This document shows, in pieces, positions 12,365 to 60,523 of a stretch of DNA of 60,523 bases. The DNA comes from an uncultured Bacilli bacterium (GTDB taxonomy: Bacteria > Bacillota_I > Bacilli_A > RF39 > UBA660). The notes beneath the pieces are model-generated. The model made no database searches and was not told the origin of the DNA. It saw nothing but the letters and a program-made list of their open reading frames with translations. The translations under genes and the position numbers were made by a program. Position 1 is the first letter of the stretch, and each line of letters starts with the position of its first letter. The stretch spans positions 1 through 60,523 of the forward strand of contig CANPZG010000004.1 in the NCBI GenBank assembly GCA_947588765.1, written 5' to 3'.

Positions 12365-12392
12365 TTCATATATTATTATAGGAGGACATGCT

Positions 12393-14523: not shown

Positions 14524-14552
14524 TTGATAATACATCAAAAATGTTGTATACT
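14524..14552 (+). promoter_or_regulatory. Sigma-A-type promoter of paralog A
   Basis: TTGATA (14524-14529), 17-nt spacer, TATACT (14547-14552), about 29 nt upstream of ATG 14581. Confidence 0.55.
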
Positions 14553-14580
14553 AAATATAGATAATAAAAGGAGTAGTACC

Positions 14581-16339
14581 ATGGAAGAGCAAAATAAAAG
14601 AAAAAGTATAGTTTATTTAACAATAGGAGTATTAACTCTAGTAGCTTTAATAGCCGGAGCAACATATGCTTATTTTCAAGCTCAAACTGGAAATAATGCT
14701 GTAGCTAATTTAAATACTACAACAGGTAGTACTGATAATTTAACTTTTTCAACTGAAGGAGAAATCGAAATAAATGCCAGTGCAGATAACTTTGGCGAAA
14801 ATATGGGAGACCAAGTATCAAAGGCAAGTGCTAGTGCAACATTAATACCAAATAACACAACAAATAAGGCAAGTGATAAATATAATGTCTATTTAGTAAT
14901 AAATGAAAATACATTTGAATATACCAAAGATACAAATACACCAGAATTAATAATGACAGTAAAGAAAGATGGAGATGAATATACAAAAGTAAAAGAATTA
15001 ACAATAAAAGAAAATATAAATATTCAATATAAACAAGAAGGACAAGAAGACTTAACAAGTGAAACAATAAATGGGTATGATATAACCGAAAAAAGAGGAT
15101 TAATAAAAATAGCTGAAGGAGAAGACATAATAGCAAATGGTGGTCAAGAAATAGATAAATGGGAAATAAAGATAATATTAAGAAATTTAGATAAGGATCA
15201 AAATAAAAATACAGGAAAAACATTTAATGGCAAGATAATAATCCAAAAGGAAGATATTCCAACAAAGATATTAGATGTATGTGAACCAAATGATAATATA
15301 GCCAATTGTTTAATCAAATTACATGATGAAAGTGAATATGGAATAACAAAATTAGTGTATCATGATGAAGAAGAAGACTATAAAGGAGAAACAAACTACG
15401 AATTAGAAGCTGGAGACTTTTCTTATCGCTATAGTGGTTCAAATGAAGAAGTAAATAATTATGTTTGCTTTGGAGGGGATTGTTCTAATAATCCAAATGA
15501 AGAAGAAAAATATTCTAATTTATATAGAATAATAGGAGTGTTTCCAACAACAGCAACCAAAGATTCACCAAATAAAGAGTATCAAATAAAAATAATAAAA
15601 GCAGATTATACAACGGAAGAAGAAACGGGAAGGAGAAGGAGCATATAGCGGAACATATAGTTATGGATCGCCTTATTATCAGGGAGAAACAAGTTACTAT
15701 TCAAAAATAGCAGGATATTATTGGAATAGTACGAATACATCAAATAGTAATAATATGTGGAAAGAAAGTAATTTAAATACAGTAAATTTAAATGACACAT
15801 TCTATAACAAAATGATAGAATCATATAAAGAAATGATAGAAGAGCATGAATGGCAAGTAGGAGGTTTTGGTGCGCATGGAACCGCAAAAACAATATATAA
15901 TTTAGAATTAGGCATAGGTAAATTAACAGAACAAGATGAAAGATGTTATAATCAAGGAAATAATAGTACAAGTGCAAAAAGATTATGCAATGGTGACAAA
16001 GACATAACATATCCAGGATATGTAGGATTAATGTATGTAAGTGATTATATGTATGGAGCAACAAATAAAAGTTGGATAACAACAACAAATAACTATAGTG
16101 CAGTAAAAGACAATAACTGGTTATACATGGGATTAGAAGAATGGTTTATTTCTCGTGGGACCAACACTGGCAACTCTGCGTGGGTTGTTACTAGAGCCGG
16201 TCTTGTGTATGACGACAACTATGCTCTCTACGTGTATGGTGGCAGTCGTGGTGTACGTCCTGCCTTGTATCTGGAGTCTTCGGTAAAAATAATATCTGGG
16301 TCAGGTACAAGTGGTGACCCATACAAGCTTTCCATGTAA
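14581..16339 (+). pseudogene. Secreted-protein paralog A (SipW-like signal + N-module + shared Cys domain), split by a 1-nt frameshift near 15627-15633
   Basis: AAAGGAG RBS then ATG 14581 (MEEQNKRKSIVYLTIGVLTLVALIAGATYAYFQAQT). Frame 1 stops at TAG 15646-15648. Frame 2 is open from 15599 and continues EGEGAYSGTYSYGSPYYQGETSYYSKIAGYYWNS..., collinear with the intact 581-aa paralog at 36139 (GGEGIGAYYGPYGSESTYKGNSTYLGKVTRYYWN). Confidence 0.8.
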
Positions 16340-22500: not shown

Positions 22501-24042
22501 ACAGCTTATTCTATTTTAGAGGATGCGAATTTATTTAATAATATTCATATCTACCATCTTGATAAAAGATATACCAGAACTTTAGATGGAAGCTCAATAT
22601 TTAATTATCCATATACAACGGAAGAACCATTCCATAAGAATTTTAATGAAGTTACGGGAGCATGGGCTGCGAGTGCTGGAGTTAATGCTGGTGCCAGTGG
22701 TTCTTGGGTTCAATGGCAAGTTGCAGGGGTGTTAGACAGTACTTTAACAACTGATGGTTCTCTTGATGTGGGCCATGTTACCTTTAAAACATTCACTCAT
22801 GAATCAGCTCACAATATTGATGCGAGATTATTCTTAATGGATAATGGTCGAAGATATGATGCTGGTGGTGAAGATTATGCCGATTCATTCTTAATGCAAT
22901 CCTTTGAAAAATTTGGTATTGTTATGAATTTATCTATTAATTTTGATTTAGATAAATTAAATGAAAAAGAACAAGCCGTTGGTTCTAATTTAACACCAGA
23001 AAGAATTAATTCGGAAGCTAAAATTAAAGATTTCTATAATAAAGCTTTCCAAACAATATATATTATGGATTATCTCGAAGCTAAAGCATTCTTACAATTA
23101 GATGATGAAGCTCAAAAAGAATTAGGTATTCAAGTATCATATCCGAATGAAAATGCTCAATTTGCTTATAACATAGTAAAAGATGCTGAGGGAAATGATG
23201 TTCGAGAATATTATGGCCCAACTTATATAGAAGATGAATATGCTCGGTTTAGGGCTTATCAAACAAGTAGATTTACCCAATTAAGTGAAATAGAAAACTT
23301 TGATTATGATAAGTTACAAACTATTGATGATTTAGTGGATAATAAAATTATGCTTTATCCATCAATCTATAAAGTTTCTTCAAGAGCAGATAATTCCTAT
23401 GGTGGAGAAGGATATAATACAGTTCATTGGTATCAACCACATAATGATTATGGTCGTCCTGATTCTTATGCACTAAAGTGGATAAGCTATGAAATGTTAG
23501 GCTATGCTGGATATAAAAAAGGTTTTGTGGAATATGCAAGTAATATTTATTATGAGATTAGAAAAACTTATGATAAATTGGCTACTCCATTTAATGAAGA
23601 TGGAACACCTAATTTAGCTAATGCTAGTTACAAATCTGATGCTATGGCTTTAGAAACAATTACAGAAGGAAAATATACTGATTTTGATAAATACAAGAAA
23701 GATCGTTTCAAAGAAGTAGAAACAAACTTAAGTCGTCTTAATAAAGTTATTAACGCTAAAGAATATGTTCAAGAATTTTATGATGCATTGAAAAAAGATA
23801 GTATTGAGATGAAAGAAGAAGTAGCAAAAGTTATTAATAGGTATGGCTCAGAAGCTAATGCTCTTAATAATTATTGGGGTATAAGAGAATTATGGGCAGC
23901 ACGAAGTTATCCAAATAGTAGTGAAGTTCGTTATAAAATATATAGCACTTTAAAAAATCTAACAAATGATTTTACAACAGATGAAATTTATATGGATACT
24001 TGGCAACAAGATGCTAATGACTTAAGCGTAACAAACAAATAA
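16579..24042 (+). CDS. Giant (2487 aa) surface zinc metalloprotease, M26 (ZmpA/B/C-like) family, with a cohesin-like N-domain, a TM hairpin, dockerin-like Ca-binding repeats and repeated beta modules
   Basis: GGGGGAGG RBS and signal peptide MYKKICLFVCMFLLLPICVLA. Cohesin-like pattern (VGDEIIVTAKVSE..YAVIATLKYDENVF...DGVLFSVRLKVKKDANVGDTNIAL). Two hydrophobic helices (aa ~183-232). DVNNDGTKDYNDAEEIIKYLI and DTNNDGEVDIGDVGDIVEEV. At least 4 modules, each starting [VI]LKD[AV]P. M26 N-domain-like GTLNGNGYTIKNLDRPLF..GTIENLKLENV. HEXXH = HESAH at nt 22798-22812, with GGEDYAD downstream. Confidence 0.8.
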   Translation: MYKKICLFVCMFLLLPICVLAKDKMELNVDKTDITVGDEIIVTAKVSEELKSYAVIATLKYDENVFQKIEETNFDLEDADSITYNEYNNKFGIINRSGSITEDGVLFSVRLKVKKDANVGDTNIALTNISSSNGNGKISIPSCKIKVLITRDATPGETIPENEENTITEDTENTITTFTTMPIIYILGSIALVSLVLVLIFIRKNKLSKKMIITYILLEIALFGTIVALIISNNSKKDVNNDGTKDYNDAEEIIKYLIDIKGNKEDNQDEDNNEENITNDKNTTNKNKNKKPHTNNEKPKEDLDTNNDGEVDIGDVGDIVEEVTKNTKVELFEEKYDNIYYVEKGEITLKFKADITPADVLITKVKIDNQYYDVNLNENVYSVQVNRTIAGKYDFVITEVVLNNGKNVKTKLKLTREILKDVPYVNKFNLDDASKSLSFHLVDDDNAFISGMATIYAGNEIIISKEISNFTEINDMPLEEDKTYFVEIVGNYELDSNRNDQNNAYVDEVMFEHEFMLGGDYNFELTNFGITDALQPGEKPIISFTSSNTRNAKIMNATLTNDNKEASNYQISKIDGNNYEIVVDDADITPGKHTISLDDVGLDSLKTFENNKDYVTNTLTYTVLKEAPKTEDIKLTSNLEEKAIDIEFMLKDPNFAINSLNIVVENSTGKVISKEELIIDQFITNLLENKPIKTTVSYGNDTDGLYTVKILANYDLSEKYNYTNQNIGEMEILTHGDTIYISDMFITNDRNERTNNLYPTKNAGNYQLAITLVTNGIRAYTAIGSVTINGLNYPAQTIEGYKTKVYVNIPDEAGVLTLKANRVLLIINNYNLKLNDYYSVPEKTIKVDVLKDAPKIENLSVEENYEQDEVTFDFDVVLDEKASTSDEDFKDGKIILNGETQPINRGKNSVTFKNVEKDTIFDLDFTASYDLDSDNPEINAITGDQNEKIDNKIFSVKYGLFNKNTYDSIAITDGEILSQKKNKYFEKNERMYYSFDIIGIDEEKELTPFKIVVNDKEYLLTKTFKGYAILLDGFTSFGEKSITITDIIFKNGLKVKLTNPYTVKIEVLKDKISINDYNYKIDSDNIKITFNKKDTDKSLIDNLMVRITDDFGKVIYNDSFKNEITFVKANDVIRYKVEVIGSYDRDTEMTINSENNYQDAVLLSEIISLDVNNIELKDIEDVNLYLRTTVDGIDQTDKIDEISIVELENNLDNYFVEIIMTNLPTVRSKIASVKNIDNHLFLELDCNYITTEKGNANQTIKIDFGEISANGKALNEEHPDIAFEKLIEKLQRNENVELTKNYDAATVSISDDYFVDEYNGTLNGNGYTIKNLDRPLFNKINNGTIENLKLENVTMPRTKGNGAIALTTNKSIIRNVLISNYTKINNEAAVGTFVGTATDSTFENCKVSNFKINSNSYTQQSIGGLVGYSYGSTFENCYASGSMSDGWNFRAGLVGNVARASTFINNYTQVSFNNPWGGDIICGIACGSGGGTYKNNISVGSGIRTRIYGSANESDNNYYLASDNDDTKDQNGVIKITTSEVNTELFRDKAHFDPTIWSLNDISMESLPKLIPEVKTKLESETSYEKDKELLYSNLMKLMPFYDNEKIINVGKNIDVNNLLNKKEIQHILPISQDGSLVTYLTYNNVKKLDKIKIVFSDNSKTEYAVIFDKVYDMVASYRITDLNIDYSYNHYLIDTNSQIINDLTNYLRNLNYADNLDILTSKADSRIYSEFYNDVTSKELQEFVLKYLANSNYINTTNDEAINDYLEGKIKRNQKLEKALYVYNYFRRFYDLDVNGMKIYDFVMFNMQGFDKNLTASKITDLFLSDATGANFDTNQTNNRYVSVLGGYTKLNSIPKFLEFIVTKFSDYDMAEWTRTQFKGILKEITIEGHSEIQYTLWDHLSSRDSKYGEVSFNYVLPILTLPETAAYIISAPVQYIIGAQRTYMNNPYSETDLANFEEKITSYTDRMQNYYTTAYSILEDANLFNNIHIYHLDKRYTRTLDGSSIFNYPYTTEEPFHKNFNEVTGAWAASAGVNAGASGSWVQWQVAGVLDSTLTTDGSLDVGHVTFKTFTHESAHNIDARLFLMDNGRRYDAGGEDYADSFLMQSFEKFGIVMNLSINFDLDKLNEKEQAVGSNLTPERINSEAKIKDFYNKAFQTIYIMDYLEAKAFLQLDDEAQKELGIQVSYPNENAQFAYNIVKDAEGNDVREYYGPTYIEDEYARFRAYQTSRFTQLSEIENFDYDKLQTIDDLVDNKIMLYPSIYKVSSRADNSYGGEGYNTVHWYQPHNDYGRPDSYALKWISYEMLGYAGYKKGFVEYASNIYYEIRKTYDKLATPFNEDGTPNLANASYKSDAMALETITEGKYTDFDKYKKDRFKEVETNLSRLNKVINAKEYVQEFYDALKKDSIEMKEEVAKVINRYGSEANALNNYWGIRELWAARSYPNSSEVRYKIYSTLKNLTNDFTTDEIYMDTWQQDANDLSVTNK

Positions 24043-24433: not shown

Positions 24434-25705
24434 ATGGAAGAACAAAATAAAAGAAAAAGTATAATATATTTAACAATAGGAGTATTAACATTAATAGCTT
24501 TGATAGCGGGTGCAACCTATGCCTATTTTCAAGCCCAAACTGAAAATAATGCTGTAGCTAATTTAAATACTACAACCGGAACAACAGATAATCTAACATT
24601 TTCAACGGATGGTAATATATTAATAAATGCAAGTGCTGATAACTTTGGAGAAAATATGGGAGACCGAGTATCAACAGCAACTGCTAATGCGACATTGATA
24701 CCAAATAATACTACAAATAATGCAAGTGATACCTATAATGTATATCTTGCAATAAAAGAAAATACGTTTGTGTACACAACTGGGGAATCAACTCCAGAAT
24801 TAATATTATCAGTAAAGAAAGATGGAGAATATTATCAAATAAAAAATGAAGATCAAAAAGAAAATATAAGTATTCAATATAAGAAAAAAGGACAAGAAGC
24901 ATTAACAACTGAAACAATAAAAGGATATGATATAACAACAAAAGATGGATTAATAAAAATAGCTGAAGGGGAAACTATAACAGCAAATGAAAAACAAGAA
25001 ATAGATAACTGGGAAATAAAGATAATATTAAAAAATTTGATAAGTGATCAAAATAATAATACAGGAAAAACATTTAATGGAAAGATAATAATCCAAAAAG
25101 AAAAATTAGCTGATAGTGCAGTAGATTTATCAGGGAATGGATACAATGGTACATTTGAAAATGGAGCTGTTGCTATTCCCGATGAAGAAGGAAATATTGG
25201 AGTTTATTTTGATGGTATAGATGACTATGTTGATATTGTAGATTTACCAGATACAATAGATTGGGAAAGTGGATTTAATGTAGAGTTTGAAGCAAAATGG
25301 TTAGCGTTTAATAAATATTCAAGAATATTTGAGGCTTCTAATGGCCCTAATTCAAATAATATATACATAGCTAACACCAATTATAGTAGTAATCTTGTTT
25401 TATCAGTTTATGGAAAAGGAAAAGGGCATGTAATTTCTAGTGGACAATTATTATTAAATGAGAAAAATGTGGTAAAAATGACTTATACTAAAACTGAAAC
25501 CGGTTATAATTTAAATACAAATATTAATGGGGTAGATCAACCAGTTATAACTCATACACCATTATTAACAAATATTACTAGAACTAGTAACTATATGGGT
25601 AAATCAAATTGGAGTATAGATGGCTACTTTAATGGTTATATTTATAATTTAAAAATAACAGATAGTACTGGTAAACCAATTATTTGGTATGATTTTTCAA
25701 AATAA
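24434..25705 (+). CDS. Secreted-protein paralog B: SipW-like signal + shared N-module fused to a LamG/concanavalin-like jelly-roll domain
   Basis: The first ~220 aa are collinear with paralogs A and C (MEEQNKRKSIIYLTIGVLTLIALIAGATYAYFQAQT...KTFNGKIIIQKE). The C-terminus matches the Laminin_G_3 pattern: VYFDGIDDYVDI...FNVEFEAKW...RIFE...NYMGKSNWSIDGYFNGYIYNLKI. Confidence 0.8.
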   Translation: MEEQNKRKSIIYLTIGVLTLIALIAGATYAYFQAQTENNAVANLNTTTGTTDNLTFSTDGNILINASADNFGENMGDRVSTATANATLIPNNTTNNASDTYNVYLAIKENTFVYTTGESTPELILSVKKDGEYYQIKNEDQKENISIQYKKKGQEALTTETIKGYDITTKDGLIKIAEGETITANEKQEIDNWEIKIILKNLISDQNNNTGKTFNGKIIIQKEKLADSAVDLSGNGYNGTFENGAVAIPDEEGNIGVYFDGIDDYVDIVDLPDTIDWESGFNVEFEAKWLAFNKYSRIFEASNGPNSNNIYIANTNYSSNLVLSVYGKGKGHVISSGQLLLNEKNVVKMTYTKTETGYNLNTNINGVDQPVITHTPLLTNITRTSNYMGKSNWSIDGYFNGYIYNLKITDSTGKPIIWYDFSK

Positions 25706-28871: not shown

Positions 28872-28982
28872 TTATTCCTCCAATTATAATTAACTACCAA
28901 AATTATATAATTATTACTTTAAATATAATTGAAGTTATGATAAAATAAAATTGAAGTATAAATTATAATAGAGGTGAATTAT

Positions 28983-30305
28983 ATGAAGAAAATATGGATA
29001 ATTATTACAATTATATTGATTATATGTGTTGGTATTTTTACAATTAATGTATTTAATAGCAAAGATAATAAAGTAATAAAGGATGATTTAGGAAATACAT
29101 TAGCTATAATGATATCAAACGAAAATGGAATAGGATATAAAGATTATGAAAAATCAATATGGCCTAGCAAAGAATATAGATTTAAAGAAGCAAAGTGTTA
29201 TGATATGAATGGTAATTCAGTGGAAAATGTAGTAACATTTAATGAAGAAACAAGAAAAGCAAAAATAACAACAAATCAAACAATAAGTTGTACCTTGTAT
29301 TTTGATAAACCAATAATAACATATTTAAGAAGTAATGATTCAAATGGTATTTTAAGTCAAGAAGAGGTAGGAGGAATGTATAGATACCAAGGAGTTGGAG
29401 TAGAAGAAGCAGCAGATGAAACTCATAAATATGTAGATAACAATTACATTTGTTTTGGAACAAAAGATGAAAGTAAATGTAATTGTGATACTGAGGATAA
29501 TTGTGATAAGTATATGTATCGAATAATAGGAATAACAGCAGATGATGAGTTATATTTAATTAAAATGAAAGTGATTGACGATGGCAATACAAAAACATTT
29601 CAATTAAATTCAAAATATTTAATTGATGATTGTGTTAATAATGCATGTGAATGGGCAAATGTTGAATTATATAAAAGGATAAATGGAGAAGCTTCTCAAA
29701 TAAATATGTCAAATATATTTATAAATAGTGAGAGATATGATTATTTAAAAGATGGAAATCCATGGTATGAAAAAATTGATTATCATAATTGGCTATATGG
29801 TGATATAAATCATATGGCTAACAAAGAATTGAATGGTGAAACAGTTTATGGTGCTTTTAATAATGGTTTAATAGTGTATGAGATAGAAACTGGTTTAAAA
29901 CCAACACAACATTTTGAATATATTAATAATGAATGGAAAATGGTAAAGCATCAATGGAGCCAAGATAAAAAGGTAAAAGCTAAAATAAGATTGATGTATA
30001 TTCATGATGACACTTTAGCATATGATAATATAATAGGTGGTCTTTGGACAGATAATCCAAATAATTGGATAAATTTAAAAAATAGTACGAATACAACGAG
30101 TAGTGAACGCGAATGGTTACTAACAAATTTAGGAAAGGTTAGTGATAGTGCTAACTATTTACATCATTATATGGTATATTCAGAAGGACGCATAGATACA
30201 ACTGAACCGAGTTGGCTCGCACGTGTACGACCTACATTTTATCTAGTAAATACCATTCAATTATCAGGCAAAGGTACAATAGATAATCCATATATCATTA
30301 ATTAA
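28983..30305 (+). CDS. Membrane-anchored paralog D: plain N-terminal TM anchor + unique region + shared Cys domain
   Basis: AGAGGTG RBS 6 nt before ATG 28983. MKKIWIIITIILIICVGIFTI anchor. Shared-domain motifs MYRYQG...NNYICFG...YMYRIIGI ... IRLMYIHDD ... REWLLTN ... VRPTFYL..LSGKGTIDNPYIIN. Confidence 0.8.
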   Translation: MKKIWIIITIILIICVGIFTINVFNSKDNKVIKDDLGNTLAIMISNENGIGYKDYEKSIWPSKEYRFKEAKCYDMNGNSVENVVTFNEETRKAKITTNQTISCTLYFDKPIITYLRSNDSNGILSQEEVGGMYRYQGVGVEEAADETHKYVDNNYICFGTKDESKCNCDTEDNCDKYMYRIIGITADDELYLIKMKVIDDGNTKTFQLNSKYLIDDCVNNACEWANVELYKRINGEASQINMSNIFINSERYDYLKDGNPWYEKIDYHNWLYGDINHMANKELNGETVYGAFNNGLIVYEIETGLKPTQHFEYINNEWKMVKHQWSQDKKVKAKIRLMYIHDDTLAYDNIIGGLWTDNPNNWINLKNSTNTTSSEREWLLTNLGKVSDSANYLHHYMVYSEGRIDTTEPSWLARVRPTFYLVNTIQLSGKGTIDNPYIIN

Positions 30306-30371
30306 ATTGCTATTATTTCTTTTTAATCTTTAATATGTTATACTTATTATATTGAAAAGGAGATGGTAGAT

Positions 30372-31121
30372 ATGTTAGTTGATAAAATTAAACATGAATT
30401 AATAGAACAACGAAAATCAAAATTTAAGGGTAATATCTATCATTATTCTCAAGTTAATTTTGCTTATCATTCCAATAAAATTGAAGGTAGTCAATTAACT
30501 GAAGATGAGACTGAAGAAATATTTGAAACGGACTCTTTTATTCCTAAAAGTGATAAGATAATAAAACTTAATGATTTAACAGAAATGAAGAATCATTTTC
30601 GTCTATTTGATTATTGTTTAGACATTATTGATGAACCATTAACTAAAGATATAATTATAAATATGAATGTAATTTTAAAAAGAAATACTACTGATGAAGA
30701 AAATCCTCGATATAATGTCGGAGGTTTTAAAATTGTTCCCAATAAGATAGGGCTTATTAATGTAATAAATACATCAAGTCCCGAAGATGTGGAAAAAGAA
30801 TTAGATAACTTATTAAAGGAATATAAAAAAATAAATAATGTTACGATTGAAGATATTATAGATTTTCATTATCGTTTTGAATGTATTCACCCTTTTGGCG
30901 ATGGTAATGGTCGCGTGGGTAGAATTATTATGTTTAAGGAATGTTTAAAAAATAACATTATGCCTTTTATTGTTTTAGATAATGATAAACCTTATTATAT
31001 GCGGGGATTAAAAAATTATAAAGAAGATAAAATGTTTTTAATAGATACAATTAAACATGAACAAGATTTATATGAAAGTGCAGCTCAAGAAATGTTAAAT
31101 TTTGAATTAAAAGATAATTAA
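30372..31121 (+). CDS. Fic-family protein (probable AMPylase) with an N-terminal inhibitory motif
   Basis: Fic active-site motif HPFGDGNGRVGR (nt 30888-30923). An [ST]xxxE[GN] motif, SNKIEG, lies at nt 30471-30488. AAGGAG RBS 9 nt before ATG 30372. Confidence 0.88.
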   Translation: MLVDKIKHELIEQRKSKFKGNIYHYSQVNFAYHSNKIEGSQLTEDETEEIFETDSFIPKSDKIIKLNDLTEMKNHFRLFDYCLDIIDEPLTKDIIINMNVILKRNTTDEENPRYNVGGFKIVPNKIGLINVINTSSPEDVEKELDNLLKEYKKINNVTIEDIIDFHYRFECIHPFGDGNGRVGRIIMFKECLKNNIMPFIVLDNDKPYYMRGLKNYKEDKMFLIDTIKHEQDLYESAAQEMLNFELKDN

Positions 31122-33108: not shown

Positions 33109-33184
33109 GAAGTTTTTGTAGCTTTTTGTAAATTATCCATTTATAATGATGACATGTGCGGTAAAAAGGAAAGGAAACATTATT

Positions 33185-33949
33185 TTGAAAAAGTTTATTA
33201 ATGTAGTTGTCATTGATGACAATGAAGTAGTAACTAGTAACATGAAGAAGTACTTTTTAAGTAGTGAGAAGATTAACATTCAAAAAATATTCAAGGATGG
33301 AAAGACTGGTTTAGATTATTTAATAAATAATGCCACAGAATATGATATCGTTATAATGGATTTGTTGTTACCAAATATTGATGGTATTGCTATTCTAGAA
33401 GAATTAAATAATAAAAATATTAGTAAGACTACCATTATTTTATCTAATTATAAGGATGATTATTCTGTTCAAAGAGCTAGAAGTTTGGGAGCAGCATTTT
33501 ATATGCTAAAACCATTTAGTATGGAATCTTTAGAAAAGAGAATTTTAGATATTAATAAGGAATATAATGCGAAAGTAGAAAATGCTAATAATTATGTGGA
33601 ATTAGAAATTAGTTCAATGTTACATGAATTAGGTATACCAACTCATATCTTAGGTTATCAATATTTAAGAGAAGGAATATTATATTTGTATGAACATCCC
33701 CGAAATTATTCTTTAGTAACAAAAGATGTATATCCAGCTGTTGCTGAAAAATATGATACTACACCTCAACGAGTTGAAAGAGCAATTAGACATGCTATCG
33801 AAGTTAGCTGGGTAAGAGGTGATTTAAAATTAATGGAAAGTTTATTTGGCAACAGCATAGATTTTGAAAAAGCAAGACCTACTAATAGCGAATTCTTAAC
33901 AACTATTGCTGATAGATTAAAAATAAATTCCAAAATATTAATTGGTTAA
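33185..33949 (+). CDS. spo0A: Sporulation master regulator Spo0A (receiver domain + Spo0A-specific DNA-binding domain)
   Basis: Receiver: VVVIDDNE...DIVIMDLLLPNIDG. Spo0A_C: HELGIPTHILGYQYLREGI..., TTPQRVERAIRHAIEVSW, KPTNSEFLTTIADRL. Preferred start is TTG 33185 after AAAGGAAAGGAAA; the ORF track opens at ATG 33146. Confidence 0.9.
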   Translation: MKKFINVVVIDDNEVVTSNMKKYFLSSEKINIQKIFKDGKTGLDYLINNATEYDIVIMDLLLPNIDGIAILEELNNKNISKTTIILSNYKDDYSVQRARSLGAAFYMLKPFSMESLEKRILDINKEYNAKVENANNYVELEISSMLHELGIPTHILGYQYLREGILYLYEHPRNYSLVTKDVYPAVAEKYDTTPQRVERAIRHAIEVSWVRGDLKLMESLFGNSIDFEKARPTNSEFLTTIADRLKINSKILIG

Positions 33950-36138: not shown

Positions 36139-37884
36139 ATGGAAGATAAGAACAAAAGAAAAAGTATAATATATTTAATAATAGGTATTGTAACATTAAT
36201 AGCTTTAATAGCCGGAGCAACATATGCTTACTTTCAAGCTCAAACTGGAAATAATGCTGTAGCTAATTTAAATACAACCACAGGTACAACAGATAATCTA
36301 ACATTTTCAACAGAAGGAGAAATAGAAATAAATGCAAGTGCTGATAACTTTGGCGAAAATATGGGAGCCCAAGTATCACAAGCAAGTGCCATAGCAACAT
36401 TAATCCCAAATAATACAAATAATCAAGCTAAAGAAAAATATAATGTCTATTTAGTAATAAATGAAAACCCATTTGAATATACAAATGGAGAAGAAAATCC
36501 AGAATTAGTATTAACAGTAACAAAAGATGGAGGAGAATATACAAAAGTCCAAGATTTAACAATTAAAAATAATATAACGATAAATACTAAAGAGGGAGAA
36601 GACTTAACAAGTGAAACAATAAAAGGATATGATATAACAACAAAAAGAGGATTAATCAAGATAGCCGAAGGGGAAGATATCATAGCAGATAATAAAACCG
36701 AAACTGATAAATGGGAAATAAGTATCATATTAAAGAATTTAGAAACCAATCAACAATTAAATACAGGAAAAGTATTTAATGGTAAGATAATAATTCAAAA
36801 AGAAGAAATACCAACCAAGATATTAGATGTATGTAAAAGTGGAGACAATATAGCCGATTGTTTAATCAAATTACATGATGAGAGTGAATATGGAATAACA
36901 AAGTTAGTATACCATAATGAACAAGAAGATTATAAAGGAGAAACAAACTATACAGAAGAAGCTGGAGACCTTTCATATAGATATAGTGGCTCAAGTGCAG
37001 AAGTAAATAATTATATCTGTTTTGGAGGAGACTGCTCAAACGACCCAACCAATCCAAATTATTCTAATTTGTATCGGATAATAGGAGTGTTTCCAACAAC
37101 AGCAACAAAAGATTCATTGAATAAAGAATACCAATTAAAAATAATAAAAGCCGATTATGCAACAGCTGAAGAATTAGGTGGAGAAGGAATAGGAGCATAT
37201 TATGGTCCCTATGGTTCAGAAAGTACATATAAGGGAAATTCAACATATCTAGGAAAGGTAACAAGATATTATTGGAATAGAGAACAAAACAATTCAGGTG
37301 ATAATACAAATGATTGGAGTAAAAGTAATTTAAATACTGAAAATTTAAATAAATATTTTTTAGATGAATATTTAAAACCTAAAGATGATGGTAAATGGTA
37401 TAATATGATAGAAGAACACTCATGGATAACTGCCGGAGTTAACTGGACAAAAATAAAAATGCAAAATGCCAAAACAATATATTTAAATGAAATAGTAAAT
37501 TTAGATGTAGGAACAGCATTAACAAGTGCGGTACCAGAAGTTACAGCAAGAGTGGGATTAATGTATATAAGTGATTATATGTATGGAGCAAGTCAAGAAC
37601 ATTGGTCAAAAGCAGGAAATAATAATGGCATTAATGATTATAGTGAAAGTAAAAGCAATAATTGGATATATATGGGTTTAGGAGAATGGTTAATTACTAG
37701 ACAAGTTGAAAGTCCAAATCGAGCACTTACAGTACACGTTTATGGGCTTGTGAGTGATGGTTATGTATATGAGGATAATCCTAACTATAACGTGACAATT
37801 AGACCAATAGTTTATCTGAAGCCTGATGTGAAAATTTTCGCAGGCTCTGGTACAAGTAATGACCCATACATAATTTCTGAATGA
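36139..37884 (+). CDS. Secreted-protein paralog C (intact 581 aa): SipW-like signal + N-module + shared Cys domain
   Basis: GAAGGAG RBS. MEDKNKRKSIIYLIIGIVTLIALIAGATYAYFQAQT. Shared-domain motifs SYRYSGS..NNYICFGGDCS..LYRIIGVFP ... VGLMYISDYMYGAS ... NNWIYMGLGEWLITR ... IRPIVYL..GSGTSNDPYIISE. Ends at a TGA stop. Confidence 0.85.
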   Translation: MEDKNKRKSIIYLIIGIVTLIALIAGATYAYFQAQTGNNAVANLNTTTGTTDNLTFSTEGEIEINASADNFGENMGAQVSQASAIATLIPNNTNNQAKEKYNVYLVINENPFEYTNGEENPELVLTVTKDGGEYTKVQDLTIKNNITINTKEGEDLTSETIKGYDITTKRGLIKIAEGEDIIADNKTETDKWEISIILKNLETNQQLNTGKVFNGKIIIQKEEIPTKILDVCKSGDNIADCLIKLHDESEYGITKLVYHNEQEDYKGETNYTEEAGDLSYRYSGSSAEVNNYICFGGDCSNDPTNPNYSNLYRIIGVFPTTATKDSLNKEYQLKIIKADYATAEELGGEGIGAYYGPYGSESTYKGNSTYLGKVTRYYWNREQNNSGDNTNDWSKSNLNTENLNKYFLDEYLKPKDDGKWYNMIEEHSWITAGVNWTKIKMQNAKTIYLNEIVNLDVGTALTSAVPEVTARVGLMYISDYMYGASQEHWSKAGNNNGINDYSESKSNNWIYMGLGEWLITRQVESPNRALTVHVYGLVSDGYVYEDNPNYNVTIRPIVYLKPDVKIFAGSGTSNDPYIISE

Positions 37885-53586: not shown

Positions 53587-53613
53587 GTTATTATGTTAAG
53601 GGGGAATGGAAAA

Positions 53614-54546
53614 ATGAAAAACGAAATTATTTTATTTGAAAATCAAGTAGTAAAACTTGAAGTTAATATGCAAGATGAAACAGTATGGCTATCTTTAGAC
53701 CAAATGGCTTTATTATTTGATAGGGACAAATCTGTTATATCAAGACATATTAAAAATGCATTGAAAGAAGAATTGAATGAATCAGTTGTTGCAAAATTTG
53801 CAACAACTGCCAGCGATGGCAAAACTTATCAAGTGGATTATTATAATCTTGATGTGATTATTAGTGTTGGTTATCGAGTAAAATCTCAAAATGGGATAGT
53901 ATTCCGTAAATGGGCTAACAAAATACTTAAAGACTATATGATCAAAGGTTATGCTATTAACCAAAAAAGATTAGATTATTTAGAAAAAACTATTAAATTA
54001 ATTGATATTGCTAATAGAGGTAATGAAAGAATTACTGGTGATGATGCTAAGGAAATATTAGGTGTAATTAATGCCTATACCAAAGCTTTAGATTTGCTAG
54101 ATGATTATGATCATCACACTATAAAGAAAGTTAAAGGTCAAACAAGTGAAAAAGTTGTTACCTATGAAGAATGTATGAATGTTATTGATAAATTAAGATT
54201 TAATAATGAAAGTAGTTTATTTGCCCTTGAAAGAGATGGTAATTTTAAATCTATAATAAACGATATTTATCAAACATTTGGAGGAAATGATGTTTATCCA
54301 TCTATTGAAGAAAAGGCATCTAACTTGCTTTATTTAACAGTAAAAAATCATGCTTTTATTGATGGAAACAAAAGAATTGCGGCCACGATATTTATTTTCT
54401 TTTTACAAGTTAATAACATTTTATATCGTGATAATAATATGGTTATTGATAATAATTCTTTGGCAGCCATAACACTTCTAATCGCGGAGTCTAATCCTAA
54501 AGAAAAAGAAGTAATGATAGATTTAGTAATGAATTTTTTGAAATAA
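53614..54546 (+). CDS. RhuM-family protein with a C-terminal Fic/Doc-type domain
   Basis: AAGGGGGAA RBS before ATG 53614. The RhuM N-domain includes LDQMALLFDRDKSVISRHIKN...YYNLDVIISVGYRVKS..G..FRKWA. The C-terminal Doc-like motif HAFIDGNKR (nt 54349-54375) has GNKR in place of GNGR. Confidence 0.8.
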   Translation: MKNEIILFENQVVKLEVNMQDETVWLSLDQMALLFDRDKSVISRHIKNALKEELNESVVAKFATTASDGKTYQVDYYNLDVIISVGYRVKSQNGIVFRKWANKILKDYMIKGYAINQKRLDYLEKTIKLIDIANRGNERITGDDAKEILGVINAYTKALDLLDDYDHHTIKKVKGQTSEKVVTYEECMNVIDKLRFNNESSLFALERDGNFKSIINDIYQTFGGNDVYPSIEEKASNLLYLTVKNHAFIDGNKRIAATIFIFFLQVNNILYRDNNMVIDNNSLAAITLLIAESNPKEKEVMIDLVMNFLK

Positions 54547-55448: not shown

Positions 55449-55509
55449 TTGCCATTTTCTTTTTGTATAAAAATTATTTTTTTAACTCATTATATAAATG
55501 GAGGAAAAA

Positions 55510-55701
55510 ATGAAAAATAAGGAATGCGGTGGATGTAAGGACGCTAAATTTGGAGTAGCTTATATTGATCCAGAAACTGGTGTTTTATGTAGCAAGATTG
55601 ATACGGGAATGAAGCTTCCAAAAGGGAAAAAGGTGTTAGCTCCTAAAATATGTACAACATGTGGAAATACGGAATGGAAAACAATTGATAATCAAGAATA
55701 A
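55510..55701 (+). CDS. Small zinc-ribbon-like protein (63 aa)
   Basis: GGAGGA RBS before ATG 55510. CGGC near the N-terminus and CTTC near the C-terminus (CxxC...CxxC). Confidence 0.5.
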   Translation: MKNKECGGCKDAKFGVAYIDPETGVLCSKIDTGMKLPKGKKVLAPKICTTCGNTEWKTIDNQE

Positions 55702-55879
55702 AGCCCAAAAGGCTTTTTTTCTTTTGCAATTTTTTTAAAACTAATGCAAAATGATAATAATTATTGTATAATGGAACTAATAATAAGGAAAGTAGTTGAT
55801 AAATAATGAAGAATAAAAAAGGCTTTGTATTTATAGAAACGATAATAACAATAGTATTCTTGGCAGCAGCGCTACTAGT
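55699..55879 (+). repeat. Copy 1 of a duplicated terminator-promoter-5'CDS block (copy 2 at 60347-60523)
   Basis: Both copies contain a short hairpin terminator, AATGCAAAA, the extended -10 TGTATAAT (55765-55772 / 60408-60415), and AGGAAAGTAGTTGATA. The first ~74 nt of the CDS differ at only ~4 positions. Confidence 0.8.
55700..55725 (+). terminator. Terminator preceding the pilin-like gene promoter
   Basis: AAAGCC-caaa-GGCTTTTTTT. Confidence 0.65.
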
Positions 55880-58800
55880 ATTGTATAGTAGTTACAGAAA
55901 TGCAATAGTAGAAGAAAGAAAAAGAATATATTATGATGATATAAGCTATTTGTATCGGAATTATTATATCGCAGACTTTCTAATCAATAAAACCGAAATC
56001 CATGATTTAAAAGATACAGCATTCGAAGAAAAGTATGCAGTAGAAATAGATGATAATTTAAAAAAAGAATTGTTTTCTGATTATCAAACAGAATTAAATT
56101 ATCCTAAAGAATTTGAAACAATCGAAGATAAATTTAATGTTAATAAAATGATGTTCGTATCCGAAGAGTTAATCACGGAATGTTTTAATGCGAAAGAAAA
56201 TGATAAATGTGATAAATCATATGAAGGCTTAAGTGATGGATTAATAAATTATCTCGAAACAATGCAAATAGATCATGAAGAAGATGATAATACCACATAT
56301 TATCTAGTAACAGAATATAGGGAAAAATCAACAAATGAAGGAGTAAAGAAATGTGAACAAGGAGATGAAGATTGTTCAGTCTTTTTTGCAACTTTAAAAT
56401 TAGATATTAATAAGATAATAGAAGTTCCAGATGCTTTAATTGGTGAGGCATGTCAAGGTCAAAACTTCGCAGATTGTATAAAAGATAATTATACCTTAGA
56501 AAATGATTCAGAAAGTGGAAGTGGAATATATCATCATGATGGAAATGGAACAGATTCAGGATATGGAGAGTATGAAGCTAATGATGATTCATATAGATAT
56601 GCGGGAGGAAACCCAAATAACTATATCTGCTTTGGATCTGATGAAGAAAAATGCCCAGATGAAAACTTATATCGAATAATAGGGATATATGGTAATAATA
56701 TCAAAATAATTAAAGAAAAAGATAATGCTGTAAAATGGAATAGTTTAAATACACGTAAAGAAATAATAAATAATTTTAATGAAAAATGGCAAAATATGAT
56801 TGAAGAATATTCTTGGGTAACGGCAGGAATAAACAATGATGTAATAACTAAAAACGCGAAAGAAGTATATGCTGCAGAAATAAGTGGCACAAAAGAAAAT
56901 AGTAAAATAGGCATAATGTATGTTAATGAATATATGTATGGTGCCAGTCCAAAGTATTGGGTTGAAAAAGGAACTGAATATACTAAAGCCAAAGATAATA
57001 ACTGGTTATTTATAGGTAATGAATGGTTATTAACTAAAGTGAAAAATGTAAGTGGGCAAGCATACGTGGTAAGCGATGTTGGTAATGTTGGTAGTAATAT
57101 AACTAGTCAATCAATAAATGCCCGGAGTAGTTTTTATTTAAAAGAAACTGTAATATTATCAAATGGAATTGGTACAAGAGAACAACCATTTAGAATAACT
57201 GATAATGGTGCAGTGGTAAAAGATATAGTTTTAGCCACAGAAGAAACCGGTTATAATGATATAGAGGTAAATGTTCAAGCGGAAAGTCAAGATGGAAAAA
57301 TTTTAAAATATTTCTTTAGTTATAAAAAGAAAAGTGAAACTGATAATAAGTGGAGCGAATGGGTCGAAGATAATGATGAAAATCATTTCTTTGGTGGGTT
57401 AGATTCAGATACAGAATATCAAATTAAAGTTAAAGTTTTAAATAATCGTGGAAATTATTCTGATGAATTTGTGAGAGAATTTAAAACAAGATATGCTGGT
57501 CCAAGTGTAACAATAGAAGGAACAACTAATGGCTGGTTTCAAATAGAATTGCATACTCAAGGTGGTAAAGGTTCAGTTGATATTGCTAGATATTGTTATA
57601 ATATCAATGATGGAGGATTTACTTGTGAAAATTCATCAAATTTAAGTTTTAGTCATACATTTAAAAATTTGAGTCCAAATACAACATATAAAATAGGAAT
57701 AAAAGCTTTTGATAAAAATGGATTAGAATCATTAGAAACAAAATATACTAATGCTAGAACAGATAATCCACCAACAGTAACGGCACCAAATTTAGGAAAT
57801 GGTTGGTATAATTCATCACGTTATATTACCGCTTCTGAAAGTGGTGGAACGGGTTCATATCATATTCAGTATTGTGAAACTACTTCATCAAGTTGTACTC
57901 CAAATACAAATGGCAGTAGAGTATATCATAGTACTGAAGGAACAAAAACGGTATGTTTTAATGCTAAAAATAATGTAACAGGAGAATTAACAAAAGGAAC
58001 TTCTTGTGCAACATCACGATTGGATTTACATGCTCCAACTTGTAGTTATTCCTCTGAACCAAGTGGTTGGGTATCTTCAGCTTATGTGAGTATCGGTTGT
58101 AGTGATACTGGAGGAAGTGGATGTGATCCAAGTTATTCAGGTACTTCAAAATATGCATATTCTTCAAATCCATATTTGAGTACGACAATTAGTGATAGAG
58201 CAGGTAATTCAACATATTGCTCAAAATCGTATTCTATTAAGATAGATAGCACGGATCCAACGTGCAGTTCAACAAGTGGAAATGGTAGTTATGGCAATTG
58301 GGCTAGTTATCGTACAATAACACAATATTGTAGTGATTCACAAAGTGGTTGTAGACAAAATTCATATACTCAAACATTTTATTCAGGTACATATGATACA
58401 ATAAGAATATATGATAATGTAGGTAATTATAGTGATTGTTCAGTGTCTCCTTATGTAGATAGTACTCCACCAAGTTGTGGTTCAACATCTGGGGATGGTT
58501 ATCGATATGATGGAGCATCTTCTAGAACAATAACTCAATATTGTAGTGATTCACAAAGTGGTTGTAAAAAAAGTTCATATACTCAAACATTTTATTCAGG
58601 TTATTCAAGTTCAATAACAATATATGATAATGCTGGAAATTCTAGGTCATGTACGGTATATCCTTATATAGATTCAACAGGCCCAACATGTAGCAGCACT
58701 TCTGGTGAAGGTAGCAGTTACAATTGGACTAATGGCTCTAGGTCAATAACTCAATATTGCTATGATGCAGAAAGTGGTTGTAAGCAAAGTTCATATACTC

Positions 58801-59324
58801 AAACATTTTCATCTGAAGGTAGAACAGGAACTATAACTATTTATGATAATGCAGGGCATTCTACAAATTGTACGGTAGATACATATATAGACAAAACAGC
58901 CCCATCAGTAAGCGTATCAGTAAGTGGAACTAGTGTTACAACAACATGTACAGATTATTTATCTGGTGTTAGTTGGTGTAGTAGTTGTAATTATTCACCA
59001 TGTAAAGAAACATTAAAACCTGCAAATGGATATACATCTGGTTCTACGGACAATGCTGGAAATAATGGAAAAAGTAGTCCGTATAACGTTTCAGGAGGCG
59101 GCGGTTCATCTGGTGGTTCAACTAGCAAAAATTGTTCCGGTGGGTATTATAGTTATTCAGGCAATGTAGGTACTCACTATGATCCTACGTCACGAAGTAG
59201 TTGTAGTAGTTTAAATGGTGGTACTTCTGGACGTTATTATTTATATAGTTGTACGAAAAAATCTCCAGGATGTATGTGTAATTTATATAGTACTCGTACT
59301 TGGATACCTTATACATGTAAGTAA
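55806..59324 (+). CDS. Giant (1172 aa) prepilin-leader protein: type IV pilin-like N-terminus + shared Cys domain + 2 FN3 domains + 5 Cys-rich Ig-like repeats + Gly/Ser linker + Cys-rich tail
   Basis: MKNKKGFVFIETIITIVFLAAALLVL carries the class III (prepilin) signal motif G/FxxIE with Glu at +5. Shared-domain motifs SYRYAGGNPNNYICFG..NLYRIIGIYG ... IGIMYVNEYMYGAS ... DNNWLFIGNEWLLTK ... SSFYL..GIGTREQPFRI. FN3-like DTEYQIKVKVLN and NTTYKIGIKAFD. Repeats of D[SK]T.P.C...YDN[AV]GN. Confidence 0.85.
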   Translation: MKNKKGFVFIETIITIVFLAAALLVLYSSYRNAIVEERKRIYYDDISYLYRNYYIADFLINKTEIHDLKDTAFEEKYAVEIDDNLKKELFSDYQTELNYPKEFETIEDKFNVNKMMFVSEELITECFNAKENDKCDKSYEGLSDGLINYLETMQIDHEEDDNTTYYLVTEYREKSTNEGVKKCEQGDEDCSVFFATLKLDINKIIEVPDALIGEACQGQNFADCIKDNYTLENDSESGSGIYHHDGNGTDSGYGEYEANDDSYRYAGGNPNNYICFGSDEEKCPDENLYRIIGIYGNNIKIIKEKDNAVKWNSLNTRKEIINNFNEKWQNMIEEYSWVTAGINNDVITKNAKEVYAAEISGTKENSKIGIMYVNEYMYGASPKYWVEKGTEYTKAKDNNWLFIGNEWLLTKVKNVSGQAYVVSDVGNVGSNITSQSINARSSFYLKETVILSNGIGTREQPFRITDNGAVVKDIVLATEETGYNDIEVNVQAESQDGKILKYFFSYKKKSETDNKWSEWVEDNDENHFFGGLDSDTEYQIKVKVLNNRGNYSDEFVREFKTRYAGPSVTIEGTTNGWFQIELHTQGGKGSVDIARYCYNINDGGFTCENSSNLSFSHTFKNLSPNTTYKIGIKAFDKNGLESLETKYTNARTDNPPTVTAPNLGNGWYNSSRYITASESGGTGSYHIQYCETTSSSCTPNTNGSRVYHSTEGTKTVCFNAKNNVTGELTKGTSCATSRLDLHAPTCSYSSEPSGWVSSAYVSIGCSDTGGSGCDPSYSGTSKYAYSSNPYLSTTISDRAGNSTYCSKSYSIKIDSTDPTCSSTSGNGSYGNWASYRTITQYCSDSQSGCRQNSYTQTFYSGTYDTIRIYDNVGNYSDCSVSPYVDSTPPSCGSTSGDGYRYDGASSRTITQYCSDSQSGCKKSSYTQTFYSGYSSSITIYDNAGNSRSCTVYPYIDSTGPTCSSTSGEGSSYNWTNGSRSITQYCYDAESGCKQSSYTQTFSSEGRTGTITIYDNAGHSTNCTVDTYIDKTAPSVSVSVSGTSVTTTCTDYLSGVSWCSSCNYSPCKETLKPANGYTSGSTDNAGNNGKSSPYNVSGGGGSSGGSTSKNCSGGYYSYSGNVGTHYDPTSRSSCSSLNGGTSGRYYLYSCTKKSPGCMCNLYSTRTWIPYTCK
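58023..58889 (+). repeat. Four tandem in-frame repeat units (222, 213, 213 and 219 bp) inside the pilin-like gene
   Basis: Units start at 58023, 58245, 58458 and 58671. Units 2-4 share long near-identical DNA runs, for example CAATATTGTAGTGATTCACAAAGTGGTTGTA...TCATATACTCAAACATTTTATTCAGGT. Confidence 0.85.
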
Positions 59325-59337
59325 TTAAGAGGTGCAA

Positions 59338-59793
59338 ATGAAATCAAAATATAATGTTAATCAAATAATTATTATTTCTGTTTTATTCGTTATCTTATGT
59401 TTAATAATTATTTTAATAATAAATAAACAAAATAACCTTAATAAAGTTGATGAACAAATTAACAATGAATATATTGCTAATGCCATTTGTGAAAAAGAAT
59501 ATCAAACAGAAAATAATTATAAATTTTACAATATAGAAAATATTGAATTTAAAAATGATTTAATAGTAGAAATTAAATCAACTAATAGAATAGAATATTT
59601 TGATGAAGATAATTATAATGGCTTTAAATCAAATGAAAAAGTGGAAAATCCAAAATATGATGATGAAAATTTAATAATTACGTTTGATGCTGGAGAAAGT
59701 CCAAGAAAAAATAATATAAAATATTCAGAATATATTAAAGAATTAACCGAAGATGGTTATGATTGTAAAACTAATAATGGTAATAATAGTTAA
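59338..59793 (+). CDS. Small N-terminally anchored protein, paralog 1 (151 aa)
   Basis: AAGAGGTG RBS before ATG 59338. TM anchor IIIISVLFVILCLIIILII. Shares C.KE...Y...I...IEF.ND..., a D/E/N/Y-rich core and a ..Y.....E.GYDCK end with the next gene. Confidence 0.6.
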   Translation: MKSKYNVNQIIIISVLFVILCLIIILIINKQNNLNKVDEQINNEYIANAICEKEYQTENNYKFYNIENIEFKNDLIVEIKSTNRIEYFDEDNYNGFKSNEKVENPKYDDENLIITFDAGESPRKNNIKYSEYIKELTEDGYDCKTNNGNNS

Positions 59794-59827
59794 TTATGAA
59801 ACTTATTAAAAAGAAAGGAAGTTAAAT

Positions 59828-60349
59828 ATGAGTAACCAAAAGAAAACTAAAAAAAATGAAAATATGAATAAATGGTTTATAATTAGTGCGGTTGTTATTT
59901 TAGTATTAATATTGATTGTGGTAATTATTTTAACTGTTAAGTTGAATAGAAAACCAAATGCAGAAAATAATCCTTCAACATCAACAATACCTAATGTTGA
60001 AAATACTTATAATTATAAATGTGAAAAAGAAAACCTATTAGAAGATTCTTTATATAAAGAAGTATACATAAATTATATAAAAGTAGATAATGAAAGAGTA
60101 CTTAATTCAATAAATTCTATTAAAGTTGTTTATGATAATGAAGATGATTATAAAGAAGCCAAGGAATATGAACAAAGGGAAGTAAAATTTAATGATGATG
60201 AAAAATCAATAGAATACTTTAATGAAGAAAGCAAAACTGATTATACTAAGGATGAGAATAATAAGGAAGTAAAAATTGATTATGAAAATTATAAAACAGC
60301 ATTAGAAAGAGAAAACTATACATGTGATAAAATTGATAATAAAGAATAA
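59828..60349 (+). CDS. Small N-terminally anchored protein, paralog 2 (173 aa)
   Basis: AAAGGAAG RBS. TM anchor WFIISAVVILVLILIVVIILTV. KCEKENLLEDSLYKEVYINYIKVDNE... and the ending ..YKTALERENYTCDK parallel the previous ORF. Confidence 0.6.
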   Translation: MSNQKKTKKNENMNKWFIISAVVILVLILIVVIILTVKLNRKPNAENNPSTSTIPNVENTYNYKCEKENLLEDSLYKEVYINYIKVDNERVLNSINSIKVVYDNEDDYKEAKEYEQREVKFNDDEKSIEYFNEESKTDYTKDENNKEVKIDYENYKTALERENYTCDKIDNKE

Positions 60350-60523
60350 AGTCTAAAAGACTTTTTTCTTTTTGGATAAAAAAATAATGCAAAACAAGAA
60401 ATATTATTGTATAATTAAAGTTGAAAATAGGAAAGTAGTTGATAGAATAATGAAGAATAAAAAAGGCTTTGTATTTATAGAAACAATAATAACAATAGTA
60501 TTCTTAGCAGCAGCCCTACTAGT
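60347..60523 (+). repeat. Copy 2 of the duplicated terminator-promoter-5'CDS block
   Basis: See 55699-55879. AGGAAAGTAGTTGATAGAATAATGAAGAATAAAAAAGGCTTTGTATTTATAGAAACAATAATAACAATAGTATTCTTAGCAGCAGCCCTACTAGT. Confidence 0.8.
60450..60523 (+). CDS. Second prepilin-leader protein, 5' fragment (continues beyond the window)
   Basis: ATG 60450. MKNKKGFVFIETIITIVFLAAALL is identical at the protein level to the start of the 55806 gene. Confidence 0.8.
   Translation, partial: MKNKKGFVFIETIITIVFLAAALL

Follow-up and report, generated by a model that had tools for sequence, protein, structure and literature searches.

Towards the end of a 60,523-nucleotide stretch of DNA from an uncultured Bacilli bacterium of the RF39 lineage (contig CANPZG010000004.1 of assembly GCA_947588765.1; the whole stretch is referred to below as the window) lies an intact plus-strand open reading frame (ORF), 55806–59324, that begins with ATG and encodes a protein of 1172 residues. 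The window is chromosomal, with a G+C content of about 27%; it contains mfd, confirmed with Pfam, and upstream of the giant gene there is apparently a ribosomal protein operon (about 39.5–53.5 kb, its ORFs identified by eye). The frame is uninterrupted across all 1172 codons, in agreement with a preliminary description of the locus. What does this gene encode? We consider it probable, from comparison of the sequence with its relatives, that the product is a modular type IV minor pilin of giant size. Its parts and its immediate surroundings are listed in table 1.

Table 1. Features of the giant gene and its surroundings, in window coordinates.
Feature	Position	Strand	Basis or remark
67-residue Cys-rich CxxC...CxxC protein, directly upstream	55498–55701	+	conserved neighbour of fusion genes
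Terminator hairpin of the preceding gene	55700–55716	+	terminator-like site, rho-independent
Extended −10 element TGTATAAT	55765–55772	+	putative; promoter assigned by eye
Ribosome-binding site AGGAAAG	55786–55792	+	read from the sequence
Putative class III signal peptide leader MKNKKG, residues 1–6	55806–55823	+	sequence; cleavage after Gly6 predicted
Hydrophobic α1-N segment FVFIETIITIVFLAAALLVLY, residues 7–27, with Phe at +1 and Glu at +5	55824–55886	+	sequence and alignments
Complete pilin-like carrier module of the GFVF[IV]ETII family, residues 1–205	55806–56420	+	end-to-end homology to stand-alone proteins
Shared ‘Cys domain’, enlarged C-type-lectin-like, DUF6273-like, residues 206–466	56421–57203	+	AlphaFold2, Foldseek, BLASTP
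Two FN3 domains, residues ~470–653	57213–57764	+	Pfam PF00041
About six Cys-containing immunoglobulin (Ig)-like repeats, residues 655–1095	57768–59090	+	repeat alignment
SGGGGSSGGS linker (residues 1096–1105), Cys-rich knob (residues 1106–1172, 7 Cys) and stop	59091–59324	+	sequence
Pair of small paralogous membrane proteins (153 and 173 residues), each anchored at the N-terminus	59332–60349	+	homologues flank fusion genes elsewhere
Second tandem copy of the giant gene, start only, running off the window	60450–60523	+	identical first 24 residues

The gene appears to have a promoter and ribosome-binding site of its own, since the terminator of the preceding gene, then TGTATAAT and AGGAAAG, come before the ORF. 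Terminator, −10 element and ribosome-binding site recur at 60344–60449, ahead of the second copy; these duplicated signals and the shared first 24 residues bear out the earlier claim that a second such gene begins at 60450. Elsewhere, in other assemblies, the second copy matches the first over at least 270 residues with 100% identity. Public contigs end within the duplicated giant genes, and such breaks are to be expected because the tandem copies are nearly identical.

How pilin-like is the N-terminal part? The protein begins MKNKKG and continues FVFIETIITIVFLAAALLVL. These are the features by which a pilin is recognized: a short leader of positive charge with Gly (Gly6) as its last residue, some 20 hydrophobic residues beginning with Phe7, and a Glu at +5 (Glu11). 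Gly6 (−1), Phe7 (+1), Phe9, Glu11 (+5) and Thr12 (+6) are invariant in three alignments of the family, which include homologues down to about 26% identity; in the remainder of the module the Cys pairs Cys126/Cys135 and Cys183/Cys190 are conserved. Residues 1–205 align from residue 1 to the C-terminus of stand-alone proteins of about 190–200 residues, which stop exactly where the giant protein reads ...FFATLKLDINK. When 1.84 billion sequences were searched with a profile of the module, 860 cluster representatives matched at E ≤ 1e-3, and the module is N-terminal in all of them; among the best 150 of these matches, 23 exceed 400 residues and the longest has 1304. The AlphaFold2 model of the module (predicted local distance difference test, pLDDT, 83) has a helix from residue 4 to residue 42 (39 residues) followed by an α/β head of helices and a 4–5-stranded sheet. 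The stretch behind the leader (residues ~27–205), which the preliminary description had taken for a unique region, belongs to this module and so recurs in hundreds of stand-alone proteins. Nor has a pilin head been replaced by more than 1100 residues, as had been proposed: a full, pilin-sized module of about 200 residues is retained, and the other domains are grafted behind it.

To describe the relatives we use the labels L### for loci from a scan of representative genomes, which returned 62 loci, and P#### for homologous proteins compared with the giant protein. Three kinds of pilin-like gene recur in these loci: A, the GFVF[IV]ETII gene of about 190 residues to which the carrier module corresponds; M, whose head varies and whose ‘KKGF[IL]ST..Y’ leader is without Glu5; and P, a pilin-like gene of about 200 residues. 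When the A family was compared by hhalign with the neighbouring, N_methyl-positive P pilin family, the two matched with 96% probability and an E-value of 3e-9 over the first 35 columns only. Similarity of the module family to ComGF and ComGE is weak (E ~1e-3), and a match to TadE (PF07811) is absent both from the giant protein and from the three stand-alone A proteins scanned with Pfam, those of L030 and L007 among them. We conclude, as far as sequence comparison can tell, that the module is a lineage-specific family, a putative new carrier missed by the curated pilin models.

Directly behind the carrier stands a domain that the giant protein shares with other products of the window. The preliminary description had recognized it as a family domain, and BLASTP indeed places it in three further genes, 36139–37884, 28974–30305 and the split 14524–15648/15755–16339. 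The AlphaFold2 model of residues 206–475 has a pLDDT of 94.5. Its best Foldseek match is 9qa6, the IgA (immunoglobulin A) peptidase of Thomasclavelia ramosa (E 5e-7, probability 1.0, 293 aligned columns, TM-score on the query 0.49, 13% identity), followed, with weak E-values, by 8q4e, the C-terminal domain of Legionella Lcl, and by classical C-type lectins. The Foldseek output gives no coordinates, and the match to 9qa6 was placed on the peptidase's N-terminal domain from the aligned length and from the second match. That N-terminal domain has been described as a C-type-lectin-like domain of DUF6273 type, its authors named 8q4e as its closest relative, and the peptidase can do without it in catalysis (PMC12237041, PMC12402451). 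It is the nearest structural likeness that we have for the shared domain; the two differ in that their identity is 13% and in that PF19789 (DUF6273) has no Pfam match on the giant protein. A distant homologue, P0009, scores 16 bits with PF19789, below the cut-off of 23.5. Searches of the PDB sequences with the domain and with its profile did not match the IgA peptidase, and the link is one of structure only. From the Foldseek matches together with the sub-threshold score of P0009 we take the shared domain for a divergent lectin fold of DUF6273 type, presumed to be the ligand-binding module.

Among the genes of the window, a 2487-residue protein (16579–24042) with the N- and C-terminal regions of M26 IgA1-specific metallopeptidases and a GLUG motif is encoded between the paralogues that carry the lectin-like domain. 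This M26-type neighbour stands out beside the fact that the best structural match of the domain is the N-terminal domain of an IgA peptidase of family M64.

The two FN3-like domains of the preliminary description are well founded: PF00041 scores 35.5 bits against a cut-off of 25, in two stretches, the better of them at residues 483–551. The repeats that follow had been counted as five, all with a YDN[AV]GN motif. They do contain Cys, as stated, but only three copies are tight (residues 812–1028; the DNA at 58314–58907 is 74–76% identical), two to three others are divergent, and the motif, as YDN[AV]G[NH], is confined to three repeats. Tandem Repeats Finder reported no tandem array in the repeat region, and the Pfam matches of the repeats to DUF7743 and Big_3_3 are weak and below cut-off. 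The glycine-serine linker and Cys-rich tail are as originally described. A similar Cys-rich end is found in P0002 and P0003, and W/G-rich repeats occupy that place in P0001, P0004 and P0005; for P0001 a precomputed match to PF19127 is available. A match of the C-terminal half to bitiscetin in the PDB was weak (E 0.002) and was attributed to Cys-rich composition.

Do homologues of the lectin-like domain also occur with pilin-type leaders elsewhere, a question that the preliminary description had raised? In relatives they do, and on carriers other than A. The domain is borne by the Glu5-less M gene in nine loci (in L007, for example, by a protein of 302 residues, 31% identical to the lectin-like domain of the giant protein, E 6e-28), and in L012 and L014 the domain and two FN3 domains are carried on the canonical P pilin, in fusions of 676–685 residues whose N_methyl scores, 18.5–18.9 bits, are slightly below cut-off. 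Within the window it is found on proteins whose N-terminus reads ‘AGATYAYFQAQ’ and, in one case (28974–30305), behind a plain transmembrane anchor. Of the three routes of delivery that had been proposed for the window, the transmembrane anchor and the pilin-type N-terminus hold, but the SipW-type signal scores 13.3 bits against a cut-off of 19 (TIGR04088). Conversely, the A module carries other cargo. Of the 23 long representatives, four have glycine-rich PF12810 (ALK_LTK_GRD) domains, which L021 and L046 have too, four have Listeria–Bacteroides repeats (Flg_new) and two have DUF285. Modular type IV pilins have been described as exchanging carriers and cargo in just this reciprocal way (PMC8179133).

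The PF12810 fusions, which score up to 104 bits, sit at the conserved pilin-like position (L021 4945–6669; L046 9998–11743). In the window, an N-terminal module of about 230 residues beginning ...LIAGATYAYFQAQT is common to 14524–15648, 24434–25705 and 36139–37884; in two of these genes the lectin-like domain is present, and the remaining one ends in another C-terminus with no Pfam match. The N-terminal part of the profile of this family meets ‘pilin’ and ‘Pilin_N domain-containing protein’ chains of the PDB at E-values of 0.7–7, which are not significant. The LIAGATYAYFQAQT module could be a TasA-like fibre module. The lectin paralogue at 14524–15648/15755–16339 is split into two ORFs whose halves match the N- and C-terminal parts of the domain; the split suggests a frameshift or a pseudogene.

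Where do the stand-alone relatives lie? Nearly all of the 62 loci come from metagenome-assembled genomes (MAGs) of uncultured gut ‘Bacilli’ or ‘Tenericutes’, Coprobacillus sp. CAG:605 and Ca. Onthocola included; two records are titled Muribaculaceae. The order common to about 45 loci is a cotS-like gene, A, an optional M, P, a ylbJ-like and a ylbL-like gene and, in several, comEA–comEC (ComEC scores 231 bits with TIGR00361). The P proteins exceed the PF07963 cut-off (27–30 bits against 21.2, and up to 36 for the neighbouring pilins taken together); of the three scanned, two pass TIGR02532 and the other reaches 15.7 against 16.3. In L023 and L034 a distinct, 152-residue gene resembling a major pilin is above the thresholds of both PF07963 and TIGR02532. 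A search for pilus machinery in the relatives, by tblastn with E. coli HofB and confirmation with Pfam, found in L015, at a distance of 9.4 kb from the A–M–P operon, a T2SSE ATPase (207 bits). In L054 and L042 it found a full tad-type operon, made up of a Flp-like gene, TadE (37 bits) and a further gene like it, a gene of ParA/TadZ type, a T2SSE ATPase (also 207 bits) and a pair of T2SSF genes. A regular expression for the Walker A sequence GPTGSGKT had missed the ATPases of L015 (GATGTGKS) and L054 (GGTGSGKT). In L054 the A gene starts 65 nucleotides past tadC, and in L042 a 376-residue protein with the lectin-like domain is encoded between tadC and the A gene. The closer relatives (32–43% identity) lie near comEA–comEC, and one of them has a T2SSE ATPase whose N-terminus is short like those of ComGA and PilT. 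Relatives at a greater distance (27–29% identity) lie behind tad operons. Complete tad/Flp operons thus occur in ‘Tenericutes’/Bacilli MAGs (L042 3456–10963; L054 5131–10597), each followed by a GFVF[IV]ETII gene. Two candidates from the related loci were discarded: the only hit of a regular expression for the A24 motif was ComEA, and an FtsK beside the pilin gene of L045 was a false lead as a pilus ATPase.

If the giant protein is a modular minor pilin, how would it work? We infer the following sequence of events. A prepilin peptidase would take off the leader MKNKKG, cutting after Gly6. The new hydrophobic N-terminal helix, with Phe at +1 and Glu at +5, would keep the protein in the membrane and would then dock the module of about 200 residues into a Tad/Flp- or Com-type filament, most likely at the tip or in low abundance. 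The cargo, namely the DUF6273-like lectin domain, the two FN3 domains, some six Cys-stabilized Ig-like domains and the Cys-rich knob, would jut from the filament and might bind a ligand, be it glycan or protein, on the mucus of the host, on IgA or on other cells. Provided that the module is a true pilin, the protein has the composition of a modular pilin, a pilin-sized module followed by lectin-like and FN3 domains.

Several results weigh against a giant minor pilin. The N-terminus had been called a textbook prepilin substrate, and its Gly at −1, Phe at +1, Glu at +5 and hydrophobic helix are real; yet PF07963 and TIGR02532 match neither the full protein nor its first 70 residues even at E ≤ 10. 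The scores with the NCBIfam equivalogs for ComGE and ComGF, 13.7–19.3 bits, are below the cut-offs of 49 and 80. A Foldseek search of the PDB with the module model gave nothing significant (the best matches were portal proteins of crAss-like phages, E 0.18), and the module profile, run against PDB sequences, matched nothing, solved pilins included. Type IV filament machinery was not found in the window, by motif scans, by tblastn with E. coli HofB, HofC and GspO or by Pfam on part of the ORFs, which agrees with the original remark on pilus assembly genes. An A24 prepilin peptidase was likewise found neither in the window nor in 950 kb of related loci, by motif scan and tblastn with E. coli GspO; this negative says little on whole genomes because only about 15 kb per genome was sampled, and the conserved canonical pilins suggest that the lineage has such an enzyme. 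The long fusions are encoded away from the conserved pilin locus, and the lectin-like domain stands next to the pilin module, proximal to it, and not at the distal end. Finally, a mature subunit of about 125 kDa is far larger than the modular pilins that have been studied experimentally.

Might the protein instead be an adhesin that is anchored in the membrane and never polymerized? Its helix would then be a signal-anchor, either uncleaved or cleaved by the prepilin peptidase but retained in the membrane like an unassembled pseudopilin, and the FN3/Ig stalk would space the binding domains from the cell. The negative outcome of the scans of the window for type IV filament genes and the separation of the fusion genes from the conserved pilin locus fit this arrangement, as do the very large size of the protein and a stalk of the kind typical of cell-anchored adhesins. 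The paralogue at 28974–30305 displays the same domain on a plain transmembrane anchor, and the small bitopic membrane proteins that are always adjacent could be membrane partners. But a plain anchor needs neither the Gly at −1 nor the Glu at +5 that are invariant in fusions and stand-alone proteins alike, and it is disfavoured because a conserved charged residue within the membrane helix is unexpected for one. Moreover, the whole head of about 200 residues is kept rather than the transmembrane helix alone, and in L054 a gene for this module comes immediately after tadC. We regard an unpolymerized adhesin as a serious but doubtful alternative.

A phage origin of the cargo is another reading. 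The order DUF6273 then FN3/Ig is the architecture of the phage ‘tentaclins’ targeted by diversity-generating retroelements (DGRs) and of the DGR targets of Faecalibacterium prophages, so that the gene might be a prophage remnant or a DGR target encoding a receptor-binding protein of tentaclin type. Its context, however, is a housekeeping and chromosomal one, with the ribosomal protein operon (assigned by eye) directly upstream; a template/variable repeat pair for the lectin-like domain was not found in the window, a reverse transcriptase was not noticed among the window ORFs, part of which were profiled, and the pilin module is conserved across hundreds of non-phage loci. We consider this origin very improbable. 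Still harder to credit is an artefact of assembly or annotation by which a small pilin gene was run together with a distinct adhesin gene. It is true that metagenomic contigs elsewhere break within the near-identical tandem genes; against this, the frame is open through 1172 codons and the LKLDINK–linker–lectin junction recurs in independent MAGs and assemblies (P0001, P0003–P0008, L003, L004, L011, L063 and L067).

A giant minor pilin would not be without company. Modular type IV pilins are widespread, with more than 1200 proteins in 264 architectures, and FN3 (IPR003961) is among their frequent extra domains (Raynaud et al. 2021, PMC8179133). The preliminary idea of a prepilin-type N-terminus that carries adhesin-like domains is upheld by the comparative evidence, but as a design it is not unprecedented (PMC8179133). 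Closest in logic are the modular minor pilins of Streptococcus sanguinis, PilB with its von Willebrand factor A module and PilC with its lectin module (PMC8179133, PMC9934059). Both systems belong to monoderms, both combine a carrier with an exchangeable effector and FN3 domains figure among the extras. They differ in that the carrier family of the giant protein goes undetected by IPR012902/PF07963, in that its cargo is a DUF6273-like domain and about eight β-sandwich domains in proteins of 1172–1594 residues, and in that the giant gene, known here from its sequence, is not in a pil operon.

What filament might such a subunit join? Tip-located minor pilin complexes (ComGD/E/F/G, PMC12153270; GspH–K; CofB of enterotoxigenic E. 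coli) resemble the relatives' loci in that these hold two or three adjacent minor-pilin-like genes. Further likenesses to the Com pilus are that the pilin genes often adjoin comEA–comEC and that there is the weak ComGF/ComGE similarity. The M head, variable, sometimes large and preceded by a helix without Glu5, resembles GspK and ComGG. On the other hand the scores are far under the equivalog cut-offs, there is no comGA–GG operon, the genes number two or three rather than four and a tad operon precedes them in two of the MAGs. For the Tad/Flp (type IVc) system and its TadE/TadF the likeness lies in the stand-alone homologue behind the tad operon in L054 and L042, an operon with a Flp-like pilin, TadE-like proteins, TadZ, TadA and TadB/C; the differences are the leader, G|FVFxE against G|xxxxEY in the Flp gene of L054, the lack of adjacent tad genes in most relatives and the lack of a TadE match in the three A proteins scanned. 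A search of the literature for type IV pili or competence in RF39 gave nothing useful. With phage tentaclins, DGR-targeted proteins that combine DUF6273 with FN3/Ig domains (PMC10743442), the giant protein has its DUF6273-like and FN3/Ig domains in common; it differs in that a DGR was not found in the window.

The principle, then, is already published, and no new mechanism would be revealed even if the gene does encode a giant minor pilin. What is new is the carrier family, the DUF6273-type cargo exchanged among carriers and the size, 1172–1594 residues. Should the interpretation be right, a carrier family of at least 860 representatives, undetected by IPR012902/PF07963, would join the modular pilins; surveys built on that signature would undercount modular pilins in uncultured gut Firmicutes because it misses this family. 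The orphan domain DUF6273, which had been met in an IgA protease and in hypervariable receptor-binding proteins of phages, would be linked to pilus display, with a testable idea of its ligand. There would also be a suggestion of the means by which gut Bacilli that are little known, and whose genomes are probably reduced, attach to cells of the host or of partners. Binding of IgA, mucin or partner cells by the lectin-like domain, if it proved real, would raise the value of the finding. A bolder extension, which we think improbable, is that the filament tip is an exchangeable receptor-binding platform resembling a phage tail fibre, with one lectin fold, which phages use as a DGR-diversified receptor-binding domain and an IgA protease as its N-terminal domain, mounted on three pilin carriers, possibly on a TasA-like module and on plain anchors. 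In that extension giant pilins would bind IgA, mucin glycans or partner bacteria, and GFVFIETII proteins would form a new class of minor pilin common to Tad- and Com-type filaments.

The two small membrane proteins that follow the giant gene (ORFs 59332–59793 and 59828–60349) have homologues beside the fusion genes of L004, L011, L058 and L067. Two or three such paralogues, of 146–180 residues, each with an N-terminal transmembrane helix and two conserved Cys, always flank the giant genes; flanking copies lie, for example, at 3747–5256 in L011 and at 8899–9435 and 14308–15307 in L067. They have no family match. Their size and topology invited comparison with PilN and PilO, which was dropped when PilN/PilO gave no match at E ≤ 0.1. 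The 67-residue protein upstream, with two CxxC pairs, is zinc-ribbon-like by eye and has no family match. Copies of it that are 90–94% identical stand directly upstream of the fusion genes in L004 and L058, where the pilin genes themselves are about 55% identical.

Elsewhere in the window a protein with RhuM-family and Fic/DOC domains is encoded at 53593–54546, two genes upstream of the giant gene, and a second Fic-like gene was recognized by eye at 30363–31121. Genes of sporulation type occur at 7709–8227, 33146–33949 and 10521–12979; SpoVT is supported by Pfam, and a Spo0A-like response regulator and YabG-, YabP- and YabQ-like products were recognized by eye. Such genes would be unexpected if the organism is of an RF39-like lineage with a reduced genome.

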